This document shows positions 1,593-16,258 of a stretch of DNA of 44,351 bases, piece by piece; positions within the stretch are counted from its first letter, which is position 1; every line of letters begins with the position of its first letter. This stretch comes from Chiloscyllium plagiosum (lineage: Eukaryota): assembly GCF_004010195.1 (NCBI RefSeq), contig NC_057718.1:56867166-56911516 (forward strand). The letters run 5' to 3'. A model generated the notes under the pieces. That model ran no database searches. It was not told the DNA's origin and saw nothing but the letters and a program-made list of their open reading frames with translations. Position numbers and translations under genes: made by a program.

Positions 1593-1894
1593 CTTTCTCC
1601 ACATATGTATATTTATTACTCCTATTTTTGATCGGCTATTTAAAACCAATTTTGCCCATTTATTCGATAGAATCAAGCAGGACCTTTGTAGATGGGTGGC
1701 ACTTCCGATCTCTTGTTTAGATCAGATAGCCCTCATCAAAATGAGTATTCTGCCCCACCTGTTGTATCCTATGCGAATGCTTCCTCTACTTTTTACTAAG
1801 CAAATATTTAGAAGACTTAGCAGCTGGTTTAATTCTTTTATCTGGTATTGCAAGTGGCCTCTAATTAAATTGACTAAATTGCAGTTACCTTACA

Positions 1895-1939
1895 CGAAGG
1901 GTCTGTTTCCATGCTGTACATCTCTATGACTCTATGACT
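1895..1939 (+). mobile_element. 45-nt extreme 3' tail of CR1/HER1 LINE
   Basis: cgaagggtctgtttccatgctgtacatctctatgactctatgact with the (CTATGACT)n tail, interrupting L1 ORF2. Confidence 0.8.
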
Positions 1940-3123
1940 GGGACAAATGGGCCTCCCAGATATAAAAAGCTACCAGTTAAGCTCGTTGCTATCTTATGTG
2001 AATGATTGAGCCCGGGGGGCCCTTACTCACTTTGGTTGGACATTGAAGCATCTCAGGCAGGATGCCCCCTTATTAGCGTGCTGTTCTTAGACAAAATATG
2101 AGAACAGTTAAGGAATATTGCCATAGCCCAATAGTCATCAATACTATCAAGGCATGGAGGGCAATGCGTCAGGGTGAGGGCAATATTGCCAAAACATTAT
2201 TTTTGATACCCATAGTTGGTATGAGGGCTTTCAGCCAAGGATGATGGACTCTAGGTTTAAACAATGGGCAGCTAGGGGTGTGTCTTGCCTGGGTGATTTA
2301 TTCAAAAGGGACATATCGATGTCCTCTGACCAGTTGGCTCAGAAATATGAGTTGCCCAGTAGGGACCTCTTTTGTTTTTTTCAAATTATAAACTTCATAC
2401 AAAAAGAGACCGCACTTCCAACTGACCCTTATTGGGCCGACACGGAGAAGAGGGTGTTGAGTGCTGAGGATACATTATCTGTTAGCAACGCTTATCATCT
2501 ATTGGGAGAGGGTCCCTCGGACAAGACCGAACAGCTCTAAGGTATGGGAGAGGGGTTGCACGTTGAGATTTCTTCTCAAATATGGGAGGATATCTGGGAA
2601 AATGCAAGAAGGATCTCAATTTGCAACAGGACCCACGCCTTGCAATTAAAGGTTCTTCACAGAGTCCATCTGATCCCAGACCGCCTCACTAAATTTAAAG
2701 TGAGAGCATCTCCAATGTGTCCTAAACGTAAAGTGAGCATGTGCACGCTTAACTCATTGTCTTTGATCCTGCCACAACAGCAGGCATTCTGGAATGCTGT
2801 GGTAGGCAAAATAGAGAAGGCCTTGGGGATGGAGGCAGAGATTGTCCCGTTTTCTCTTCTTCTGGGCTTTGTTAATTCACTTTCATTAGATACACATTTT
2901 AAAAAAAGGCTTTTCAGTATCCTCACTTTTTGTGCCAAAAGAACATTTTATTAGGGAGGTGTCGGAAAATTCCCTGAAGCTGGTCGGCTGGCGTAAGTTA
3001 GTCATGGAGCACATTCCCTTGGACTTTCTTATGAGTATGGTGCACCATAAAACTGAGAATTTCTATAAGATGTGACAGCCCTTTTTGGACTAACTGGGCA
3101 CAGATTTGTCAGCCATACTAATA

Positions 3124-3415
3124 AGAGCTGGAAATGTGATGCTGGAAAAGCGCAGCAGGTCAGGCAGCATCCAGGGAACAGGAGAATCGACGTTTCGGGC
3201 ATAAGCCCTTCTTCAGGAATGGGGAAAGTTTGTCCAGCAGGCTAAGATAAAAGGTAGGGAGGAGGGACTTGGGAGAGGGGCGTCGGAAATGTGATAGGTG
3301 GAAAGAGGTCAAGGTGAGGGTGATAGGTCAGACTGGGGTGGGGGCGGAGAGGTCGGGAAGAAGATCTCAGGTTAGGAAGGCGGTGCTAAATTTTTCCAGC
3401 AGGCTAAGATAAAAG
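3124..3415 (-). mobile_element. Penelope-like element terminal repeat fragment
   Basis: 3124-3220 is the reverse complement of 16088-16188 with a few changes. Contains a hammerhead core and a purine-rich tract. Confidence 0.8.
3189..3216 (-). ncRNA. Minimal type I hammerhead ribozyme core (Penelope-type)
   Basis: Minus strand reads CUGAAGA-A-GGGC-uuau-GCCC-GAAA-CGUC: conserved core, perfect 4-bp stem II, palindromic ACGU stem III, GUC cleavage triplet. Stem I is weak. Confidence 0.7.
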
Positions 3416-3682
3416 TATAGGCCACCAAATAATATCACATTGGGACGGACAACAAACACAGAAATAACTAATGCCTGTAAAAACAGTATGACTATTATCA
3501 TGGGGGATTTTAATTTATATGTAGGTTGGTTGAACCAGTTTGGTCAGGCAAGCCTTGAGGAGGATTTCATCGAGTGCACCCATGACAGTTTTCCTGAACA
3601 GTATGTAATGGAAGCAATGAGAGAGCAAGCCATCATTGATCTGGTCCTGTATAATGAGACAGGAATAATTAATGACCTCAAA
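3416..3682 (+). mobile_element. CR1 LINE endonuclease fragment
   Basis: YRPPN...TIIMGDFNL..W...EQYVME..REQAIIDLVL, APE-type motifs homologous to 42630-42880. Confidence 0.8.
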
Positions 3683-3684
3683 AT

Positions 3685-3753
3685 GGGGAGGGGAGGGTAC
3701 AGAATGCTGATAGGGGAGGGGAGGGTACGGAATGCTGATAGGGGAGGGGAGGG
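3685..3753. repeat. 28-bp G-rich minisatellite, ~2.5 copies
   Basis: GGGGAGGGGAGGGTAC(A/G)GAATGCTGATA at 3685-3712 and 3713-3740, partial copy at 3741-3753. Confidence 0.9.
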
Positions 3754-4379
3754 AGCCTCTATATGCCATGGCAATTCTATGTAATGAATCTGGTATCCAC
3801 AGGGGAGGAACTACAAACATACATAAAAACATTTGCACTCGATGATCAAGGGCTAATACTTTGTTTTGCTGAGCTGTGTTACACTTATTATCATTTTTAT
3901 TACTGTTAAGATATTTCTTTTTTAGCTGAGTTATTAGTTGATATTTATTTACGCAATTAGCAAGTTTTTTTAAATATTAATTTGAATTGTTTGGTTTTGT
4001 ATTTTTGTAATATTCAAAAACAATTTCCTTTTTTCGAATAAAAATATATTTTAAAAGAAAAGTTGCAAGTAAACAGGTTCCATTTCAGACAATTGCCAGG
4101 AGGGATAAAATTGGAAAGTTGATAGATAACAATAACTTTAGTTATTGCAATATATATTTTAAGGAAAGTTTTGCTCTTCAAATAAGCAGCCTGCTGCATC
4201 AGATGCAAAGAAAAGACTCCATTTACAAAACAAAATCTGTTCAACATATTGTCAACATATCTAGATTTGTTGCAAATATTTAATGGTAAGCTATGTATCT
4301 AAAAACAGCAAGCTTAACTTATGCAAGGCAGATAACATTTAAAAGAAAATTCATAGATTGAGGCATTGATGATTACGCC

Positions 4380-4661
4380 TGCCTTCGTTGCCTATCCTTA
4401 ATTGCTCACAGGGCAGTTAAGATTAGTCACATTGTTGTGGGTCTGAAGTGCATGTAGGCTTGACCAGGTGAGGGTGGAAGATTTCCTTTAGTGAACTGGA
4501 TCAATTTTCCCAACAGTTGTCAATGGTTTTATGGTCATCATTAGACTCGTAATTCCAGATTTTTATTGAAATCAAATCTGGATTTCAAGCCAGGTCCCAG
4601 AACATTACCTGGGTCTTGTAGTAACAGTCCAGTGATAATACCACTAGATCACTGCCTCCCC
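4380..4661 (-). mobile_element. Degraded tRNA-derived SINE
   Basis: Minus strand begins GGGGAGGCAGTGATCTAGTGGT (A-box-like) with a degenerate B box. Its tail resembles the LINE tail near 18170-18200. Confidence 0.6.
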
Positions 4662-4974
4662 TGAAATAGAGGCTTGTATCACAAGCCATGAGAATCTCCT
4701 AGGACTACTTTGCCTTTCTGGATTGGAGAAAAATGTCACGTTTCACTTTGTACACTCAGTGTACACTTGTCCCAAATTAGCTTGAGGAATTTAATTTGGA
4801 CTCTTTTAGGAGATAATATTAGAGCAGTGGGCTGAGGCAAAAAGGGGGTTAGATAGGTAAGCATGACAATATGTTGAAGTGTGTCAGTTTAACTGTCAGG
4901 ATGGAACTGTTTCAACAGTATTTTTATTGCCCTTTTTCTAAGTTCACACCATATTTCAATAACACATTTAATAC

Positions 4975-5159
4975 CTTTTTTTTAAGTCTCTGGTTTTCCT
5001 TTTCTAGCTCCAGGATCTTAAAATTACTGCCATCTGTGGAATCCATGACATTGCGAAGTTCATCCACAGTTTTGAGCAGAAATTGATTTTCTTTCTCCAT
5101 CTTAAGCAAACGACTTGAGGTCAACTCATTCACTTCCTGGCTCAGAGATTTGTGTGCCC
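4975..5159 (-). CDS. CCDC88A: CCDC88A coding exon (~exon 13), 185 nt
   Basis: tttgcag| acceptor and |gtatta donor. Phase-1 start, (G)AHKSLSQEVNELTSSRLLKMEKENQFLLKTVDELRNVMDSTDGSNFKILELEKENQRLKKK. EVNELTSSRLLK fits Girdin better than its paralog Daple as recalled. Confidence 0.95.
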
Positions 5160-5469
5160 CTGCAAACAATTAAAAACAAAATGGGGCAAAATTATGTATT
5201 CACATATCAATGAAGAATTGCCCATAGCTTTTACAGCCACAAAACAGTAATCCCAATATTAATAGTCTAATTTAGCTAATCAAAGTTAGTATACTAGAAA
5301 TGAATTTCAATTCAATCAACTGAATAAGTACTCTGACCATTAATCTTAAAACCTACATATATTCTAATTGTTTCAGTGTATATCGTATAAATAGTTCAAG
5401 TATCAGGCAATATCATTAAATGTTTTATCATTACTTTCCCTAAAGTAAATTTCTCCATTAAAGCACATA

Positions 5470-6600: not shown

Positions 6601-7719
6601 CTTTGATTGACAGCAAACTTGCTTCCACCAATTCGGCACTAAATCCAAATCACTGGAACCTGTGTAAGTGCCACCCAGAACCAAATTTCCATTTCTCCTT
6701 CACTGTTGTTTTTCTGTAGTCGGGTAGTTATAAATTGAGAACTGAATGGTCCAAGGGATCACTGACACAAGTGCATCAGTCTACGAAGTCATGAATTGCA
6801 TTCCAATGGACTACCCCATTGCAATCCTTGTTTCCTTCAATTTCTAATATTTAGGTAACGTATTCAAAAAGTAAATATTGCAAATGCTGGAAACGAAGCA
6901 AATCAGGCAGCATCTATGAAGAGAGAAACACAGTTAATATGATTCAGGAATCCTATTTAGTTCTAAGAAAGTAGTGAAGGGGTGAGTGCAAAAGCACAGA
7001 AATGGAACATGCACAGTCGAGAGCCTTGTCATCCACAAGGAAAGTAAAACATATTCATTGACAAAACAAATGAAGGCCTCAGTTAAAGAAAGATGGGGTA
7101 AGAAACAAAAGATGTTTGTAGAGTGTATGCTAATGGCAGAATCATTAAATAAAGCTGTGACCCAAAACAAAATAGGGACAAAGAAATAGTCTGAAATTCT
7201 TCAATTTAATGTTCAGTCCAAAAGTTTGTCAAATTCCTAATCAAAAAGAAGTGCTGCTCCTTTAACTTACAAGCAATAAAATGTCATCTGCTTTCACACA
7301 TTCACAAACACACTCCAAAGGTCTCAAAGCATTGGAGCTGCTCTCCTTTTACAGACAACTTTAAGTACTAGAGAACATGGACTTATATTGCTTAGGTGAT
7401 TTGCATGGTGGAGGCCAGGCAAAGCAAAAAGTTGGCCTGCCCCATTTATAATATCCCACTGCTCTTTGTGATATGGCTTGTGATACATACACCTGCAAAA
7501 GGTGCAATATGTCACAGATTCACATACAGAACATTGCCTTGCCGTACTTCTGAAAGGTCTCCATACCATAGCACATAGCCTATGGTAATGTTTCATTTCT
7601 CTTTTGTGCAACTGCTCAGGAATCCCATCACTGAAAGCTGCACTGTTTCTGATATTCTCCACATAGAATCAGTGTACATATTGCAAATGGATCCAGCAAT
7701 GACAGGTGCTACCACGATC

Positions 7720-15748: not shown

Positions 15749-16027
15749 CTGGGAAGTAGATAGTTAATTTCAGAACACAGTAGTGAAAACAATTATTTTA
15801 TGCAAGTCATGAGCAAGTTTTCATAACATAAAGACTAAAGTGGCTAAATTAACAATAATCTATAGCCAGAAGGTTTCAATTTCATGTTTTAACGAGAAAT
15901 TTTAGTATACTATGACAAGATTGGGAAAATTTTAATTTCTGTTAAATAATGCTACACAGCAAAAGTACATGAATTTTGGAAACCGACAATTCATATTCCA
16001 AGAATACAATGCTTATACTAATTACAG

Positions 16028-16186
16028 GAGAAAGTGAGAACTGCAGATGCTGGAGATCAGAGCTGAAAATGTGTTGCTGGAAAAGCGCATTCCTGAAGAA
16101 GGGGTCATGCCCGAAACGTCGATTCTCCTGCTCCCTCCTGGATGCTGCCTGACCTGCTGCGCTTTTCCAGCAACACATTTTCAGCT
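16028..16186 (+). mobile_element. Penelope-derived hairpin insertion with hammerhead core and 16-bp TSD
   Basis: Perfect TSD CTTATACTAATTACAG at 16012-16027 and 16187-16202. Perfect 31-bp inverted repeat at 16059-16089 and 16158-16188. CTGAAGA-A-GGGG-tcat-GCCC-GAAACGTC at 16093-16120. Confidence 0.88.
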
Positions 16187-16258
16187 CTTATACTAATTAC
16201 AGTTCATTTACAGTGGCACACAGTTAATCTGGAAATTACATTTGTACCACATACACAC

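Follow-up and report, generated by a model that had tools for sequence, protein, structure and literature searches.

A minimal hammerhead motif in a girdin intron of Chiloscyllium plagiosum lies in a young Penelope-like element copy and is likely a neutral passenger

The window considered here, i.e., the whole stretch of DNA that was analysed (44,351 nucleotides from Chiloscyllium plagiosum), carries on its minus strand an exon of girdin (CCDC88A) whose 61 amino acids are 100% identical to a girdin-like protein of the same species. Mapping of this protein onto 244 kb around the window yielded an exon layout in which the next girdin exon starts ~7.7 kb to the left of the window, giving an intron of ~12.7 kb. 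The hammerhead motif (Table 1) is situated on the sense strand of this intron, with the GT of the splice donor beginning 1,758 nt upstream of hammerhead C3, so that its predicted placement (sense in a CCDC88A intron, ~1.76 kb past the donor at 4974) was borne out by protein mapping. To the left of the window, the same intron contains an older inverted pair with arms of ~260–310 nt (G000:C9:56861371-56862220), which is predicted to form a long double-stranded RNA in the girdin pre-mRNA.

Table 1. Features of the window, in window coordinates; descending ranges are read along the minus strand.
Feature	Position	Strand	Basis or remark
Minimal type I hammerhead core	3189..3216	minus	pattern and structure scan; numbering per hammerhead convention (PMC4209133, available part)
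C3-A9	3216-3210	minus	conserved hammerhead core
Extra A between positions 9 and 10.1	3209	minus	
Stem II, 4 bp with 4-nt loop, G10.1-C11.1 pair present	3208-3197	minus	
Palindromic A15.1-C-G-U16.1 (ACGU), after G12-A14	3193-3190	minus	
C17	3189	minus	predicted cut between 3189 and 3188
Core plus stem I	3185..3220	minus	stem I 5′ strand 3220-3217, 3′ strand 3188-3185
5′-truncated Neptune-type Penelope-like element copy, 273 nt	3121..3393	minus	comparison with longer copies
Tandem 27-nt extra piece of the same pLTR at the 5′ junction	3395..3421	minus	sequence comparison
LINE fragment, frame with YRPPN...IMGDFN	3416..3660	plus	translation
Girdin (CCDC88A) exon 5160-4975 and splice donor 4974	4974..5160	minus	protein match
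Old piece from the same family (79% identity), lacking the 5′ part of the core	6885..6935	minus	
Inverted pair of the same Penelope-like family	16026..16191	both	sequence comparison
Inverted-pair plus arm, core at 16093, antisense to girdin	16088-16191	plus	
Inverted-pair minus arm, without core	16089-16026	minus	

Read along the minus strand from 3216 to 3189, the motif consists of CUGAAGA, one extra A, a stem II of GGGC-uuau-GCCC, GAAA and CGUC. All positions conserved in minimal hammerheads (i.e., C3-A9, G12-A14, A15.1, U16.1 and H17) are present and the palindromic 15.1-16.1 segment ACGU stands in for helix III, as the original prediction of an intact minimal core with a palindromic stem III had stated. 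By the measures of a canonical type I hammerhead it falls short: an Rfam scan returned no hammerhead family for the motif at E ≤ 10, and the monomer has no helix III. Stem I, described beforehand as weak, does contain the expected pairs (C-G, U-A, U.U and A-U, i.e., three standard pairs and one U.U in a short helix I) and is predicted to be unstable alone. Among 56 sampled cores, a perfect 4-bp stem I occurred in 7, belonging to a sister subfamily, and the U.U in 28.

The loose core pattern by itself matched 12 times in the window (5.2 expected), and filtering for structure left three sites, at minus 3216, plus 16093 and plus 1510. The motif at minus 3216-3189 is nevertheless more than a chance match, since its 28-mer occurs genome-wide 33,157 times without a mismatch (16,670 forward and 16,487 reverse), versus 0 for the reversed control. 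The site on the plus strand (1510-1538, antisense to girdin) represents a second hammerhead-like family with a 5-bp stem II, the palindrome AGCU and an A at H17, in which stem I is not obvious. The segment from G12 across the cut site (minus 3196-3184) is an imperfect palindrome for which a local hairpin or an inactive dimer is possible; the ribozyme might in this way carry a lock of its own.

Comparison with longer copies placed the core within an element copy comprising 177 nt of pLTR followed by the core and by a 3′ region of 68 nt that terminates in the shorter of two 3′-end classes. This copy (3393-3121) shares 96–99% identity with 30 longer copies (L031-L060) and 98.5% identity over its full 273 nt with three of them. 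Longer family copies carry a frame for a reverse transcriptase (RT) and a GIY-YIG endonuclease directly upstream of the core. Specifically, profile searches gave an RT match in L041 and a weak GIY-YIG match in L054, and L125 contained a 754-aa frame with RVT_1 (E 9e-8, above the cut-off), a DKG motif and GIY-YIG (E 2.5e-4; 21.7 bits, just below the 22.6 cut-off), followed by the exact 28-mer, in agreement with the earlier attribution to a Penelope-like element (PLE). Moreover, a cysteine linker (Cx4CxxC) separated RT and endonuclease in the frames of L125, L106 and L126, and cores near-identical to the 28-mer were found in L054, L106, L126 and L146. None of the 8 long loci held a complete pLTR-ORF-pLTR unit.

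These features suggest that the carrier is a Neptune-type, endonuclease-bearing (EN+) PLE, with the linker and the vertebrate host favoring Neptune over Nematis. Neptune-type EN+ PLEs, in the available part of their description (10.1101/2021.04.23.441226), likewise have an RT with DKG, a cysteine (Zn-finger) linker and GIY-YIG at the C-terminus, and show 5′ truncation, inverted partners and an optional 30–40-bp tail. The latter fits the 3′ ends of 100 young pieces, which fell into two classes (41 and 46 pieces) ~40 nt apart. No target-site duplication was evident by eye for the copy at 3393-3121, which sits between two different LINE fragments, and the X11 and X14 contigs showed no joint cleanly skipping this insertion, a result that is uninformative on polymorphism. 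The two flanking LINE-like fragments (~1620-3120 and 3416-3660) are both on the plus strand; the left one has 4 letters in common with the element's 3′ end, and the frame of the right one reads like what we take to be an AP-endonuclease. Just beyond, window positions 3680-3755 form a short tandem duplication of a G-rich ~30-nt unit with high depth in DNA contigs.

The girdin motif resembles the metazoan PLE minimal hammerheads of Cervera and De la Pena (2014), as far as that source is available (PMC4209133), in being of type I with no true helix III and a palindromic 15.2-16.2 segment, in the extra base between 9 and 10.1, the G10.1-C11.1 pair and the short helix I, and in occurring mostly as single truncated copies and opposite-strand pairs. 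Such dispersed copies and pairs of pLTR minimal hammerheads are thus known, and the same text records them in Neptune, Poseidon and Xena elements of fishes. It differs in its short helix II of 4 bp and in its host, since sharks are not named in the available part of that paper, and in number: the exact shark 28-mer alone has 33,157 copies, compared with the ~4,000 (coelacanth) and ~9,000 (Xenopus) motifs given there. The girdin-intron hammerhead is, in short, an ordinary copy of a known kind, one of more than 33,000 identical ones.

Many of its relatives have decayed. The core contains three CpGs, one of them at G12, and these CpG positions were altered in 17–24% of 155 copies, compared with 1–9% for the remaining fixed core positions; 56 of 180 core-covering pieces retained an intact core. 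Decay of the three CpGs after insertion would switch the core off, and the copy at 3393-3121 is probably intact because it is young.

Whether the core could cut girdin pre-mRNA depends on what it can pair with. Single minimal hammerheads did not cleave and their dimers cleaved little according to the available text of PMC4209133, and the core of an anole element is described as cleaved only with its protein (PMC11167929, available part). A second sense core is present in the same girdin intron, 8.9 kb downstream, with a stem III palindrome altered by CpG decay; a 4-bp stem III with one G.U could still form with it. Ahead of this second core, 8.1 kb downstream, lies an antisense copy that may pair with the copy at 3393-3121 over ~208 bp. 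The closest sense core that is fully intact belongs to the next girdin intron, at a distance of 20,956 nt; across the gene as a whole there are 4 intact cores in sense and 2 in antisense orientation. In a nearest-neighbour model, to which tertiary contacts and proteins are external, the double-hammerhead fold reached −10.5 kcal/mol, which falls short of the stability of two free monomers by 8.1 kcal/mol; an inactive dimer that competes with it, self-complementary across the cut site, reached −24.1 kcal/mol. Pair probabilities in context were 0.92–1.0 for stem II and at most 0.01 for stem I. The active hammerhead dimer is therefore predicted to be unfavourable.

RNA reads were taken from X15, a raw single-cell poly(A)-selected run that was read at ~2% and is blind to cyclic-phosphate ends. 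On window positions 2400-5300 it yielded 423 reads, 94% of which run on into unlike sequence (most likely the flanks of other family copies), and there was no place in this interval where many molecules begin or end. Depth on the girdin exon was at most 1, so that this run is silent on the locus itself; X16 gave 0 reads on the same interval. On a longer family copy, X15 gave 2,654 reads from both strands, with depths before, across and after the cut site of 468/658, 516/749 and 512/797. These family reads showed neither a depth step nor a pile-up of ends at the cut site, in a library that does not see cyclic-phosphate ends.

It is highly probable that the motif is the pLTR hammerhead of a young 5′-truncated Neptune-type Penelope-like copy in the girdin intron, likely a neutral passenger that rarely if ever cuts the pre-mRNA. 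Element identity, copy number, equal numbers of intact cores per strand (see below) and the lack of a close intact partner are established. On this reading, activity of the core would be confined to RNA of the element itself and would require dimerisation or assistance from the element's protein. What weighs against this reading, namely a core intact at every conserved position and family RNA on both strands in X15, so that trans partners exist, equally feeds the alternative that survives best: that the core occasionally cuts girdin pre-mRNA through a cis or trans family partner or an element protein, harmlessly, with the exons tethered and spliced. Cleavage of the anole PLE is protein-assisted (available part of PMC11167929), splicing survives slow hammerhead cleavage within an intron (available part of PMC2995048), and such occasional cutting would likewise leave no strand bias; because a cut intron can still be spliced, the lack of visible selection does not prove a lack of cleavage. 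We nevertheless regard it as improbable, since the dimer is unfavourable and faces the self-complementary register across the cut site, the antisense copy 8.1 kb downstream could pair with the copy that carries the motif, and no ends occur at the cut site in the family reads, nor, in the available part of PMC11167929, in anole reads. The proposal of a repeat-driven intronic cleavage mechanism consequently found little to stand on, given the flat strand ratio, a same-intron sense partner with a changed stem III and an active dimer predicted to be unfavourable by 8 kcal/mol; rare cleavage is still compatible with these results.

It is still less probable that the motif is merely hammerhead-like and that its sequence is kept for another job of the element, e.g., as a promoter or for protein binding. 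Conservation 3′ of the core is on a par with that of the core itself, the core overlaps the putative start region of the element RNA (see below), and insertion of the anole element in vitro was unaffected by hammerhead mutants, as reported in the available part of PMC11167929. The pattern of change nonetheless follows what a hammerhead permits: subfamily variation is concentrated at N7 (47%) and in loop II (7–39%), positions that are free in hammerheads, with stem II pairing preserved, and the same core type cleaves in vitro in the accounts of PMC4209133 and PMC11167929, as far as these are available.

Consequences of cleavage for host genes were examined as a strand bias within 21 intervals totalling 1,727,581 bases (1.73 Mb, of which 57,430 are N), consisting of the part of girdin that lies between mapped exons and of 20 further intervals, delimited by hits to spectrin, fn3 or LDL-a domains on the same strand; the latter 20 are selected intron-rich clusters and count as putative genes by those hits. 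In 18 of the 21 intervals, the strand assumed to be sense had more T than A. Family pieces as a whole were evenly divided (127 sense, 130 antisense), and so were intact cores (28 on either strand; sense share with a 95% interval of 0.36–0.64) and solo intact cores (13 and 12; interval 0.31–0.72). A structure-based scan gave 28 sense versus 24 antisense, the exact 28-mer 12 versus 9, and the second hammerhead family 5 cores on either strand. Thus, the shortage of intact sense cores in introns that had been offered as a check was not seen, and neither depletion nor enrichment was apparent across the 21 intervals, in a test whose power excludes only a depletion of ~1.75-fold or more and is compatible with a mild one. 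An inverted partner lay within 400 bp for 135 of the 257 family pieces, and of the 56 intact cores 31 belong to inverted pairs, which forces the ratio towards 1:1. Two copies, in the girdin and C10:87.4 Mb intervals, represent a third type of core in which stem II is longer and the stem III segment is not palindromic.

That repeat-driven intronic cleavage matters for host transcripts, those of girdin or of other genes, whether it burdens them or has been co-opted to control them, is accordingly the least credible reading and very hard to sustain: the sense orientation 1.8 kb from the donor, the conserved intronic hammerheads of amniotes (PMC6155905, available part) and the under-representation of related retrozymes in Xenopus introns (preprint 10.64898/2026.07.22.740005, available part) speak for it, but sense cores are neither depleted nor enriched, gene sequence tolerates intact sense cores at a density of ~16 per Mb (28 in 1.73 Mb), the copy shares 98.5% identity with sisters scattered elsewhere and so inserted recently, with no sign of a history of its own, and the full stems of the amniote intronic hammerheads are absent. 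Those hammerheads (RECK and others) are likewise of type I and reside in host introns; they are described, in the available part of PMC6155905, as single and deeply conserved with tertiary contacts, whereas the girdin motif belongs to a recently inserted repeat and lacks helix III. Intron cutting by repeats, were it a working system, would be of great weight, and the evidence points away from it. As given, the girdin hammerhead carries little weight, being one passenger among tens of thousands, and the flat ratio is a useful negative, in that numerous intact minimal hammerhead cores are tolerated in the pre-mRNAs of a vertebrate.

With the motif read as a passenger copy, the ends of its relatives inform on how such copies arise, and this start-site and cap signature is the part of the work worth following. 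Among 100 pieces at ≥88% identity, the 5′ ends of 61 fell between 10 nt before and 3 nt after C3; 85 crossed the cut site and 1 started within 2 nt of it. Genome-wide, a purine directly preceded the post-cut 26-mer in 286 matches, which include point changes or small deletions in full copies, compared with ~22,000 copies of the 26-mer (an estimate scaled from 14 local copies). On these two counts we rejected the idea that past cleavage has left an accumulation of family 5′ ends at the cut site. The counts suggest instead that the RNA copied into the genome is uncut and that cut RNA hardly ever serves as the template. Reverse transcription would start at two sites, ~60 and ~100 nt past the cut site, on uncut RNA.

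Genome copies that match as far as the A four bases before C3 and then stop numbered 7,327, compared with 7,692 matching to three bases before C3, 3,684 to two, and 18,446 to at least five (with a first pattern letter other than G). The base preceding this A was G in 4,426 of the 7,327 (60%, versus 26% expected from base content), and G preceded the neighbouring 5′-end classes in 16 of 100 and 17 of 100 among the matches listed. In the girdin copy, the A corresponds to position 3220, the inferred start position of the family, in a pyrimidine-rich, initiator-like context. Such a context fits the initiator consensus, and cap copying by reverse transcriptase is a feature of other retroelements. 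When 25 G junctions (20 in list order and 5 from earlier loci) were inspected by eye, the G was clearly untemplated in 5 and probably so in 3; in 13 it was shared with a target duplication or an inverted partner, and 4 were ambiguous. An artefact of inverted partners was rejected as the source of the extra G, accounting for 6 of the 25 junctions and not for the excess. A target-site preference could explain part of the G excess but not the untemplated cases. From these junctions we infer that the extra G may be the cap copied by reverse transcriptase, which then pairs with a target G or stays extra.

Transcription of the element RNA thus likely starts at the A opening stem I, four bases before the core, and the 5′ ends at this A together with the untemplated G suggest that the hammerhead forms the capped 5′ tip of the element RNA. 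For the short copies, reverse transcription would run to the capped RNA start 4 nt before the core; for the copy at 3393-3121, it would have continued further up a read-through RNA. We tentatively raise the possibility, which we consider rather doubtful, that the hammerhead comprises the first 36 nt of the capped RNA, that cleavage would remove the cap with 32 nt, and that the ribozyme is a hypothetical self-decapping off-switch tripped by copy dimerisation or by the element's protein, the tens of thousands of short copies being cap-marked run-off products of RNA that escaped it. A start site at the edge of the ribozyme bears on the open question of what the hammerhead does in endonuclease-bearing PLEs, and a decapping role is directly testable.

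Related elements offer partial parallels. In Penelope of D. virilis, transcription starts 46 nt before the intron in the pLTR (PMC2377424, available part), and the end of that pLTR intron abuts helix I (PMC4209133, available part). The Poseidon element PAc of the green anole, in the available part of PMC11167929, likewise has two 3′-end classes past the hammerhead, with two start sites and a "tail", uses uncut RNA as template and has no RNA-seq ends at the cut site. Unlike the shark element, PAc belongs to a different clade and its ORF begins in stem II, and the available part of its account gives no cap signature or start site at the hammerhead edge. Literature searches for a cap or start-site signature in PLEs and for shark PLE hammerheads returned nothing specific, and the supplements of PMC4209133 and PMC11167929 may bear on both. 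Finally, one short piece in the genome (L025, G000:C1:1850240), of a rare kind, has its start precisely at the predicted cut site and follows a longer copy at a distance of ~110 nt.
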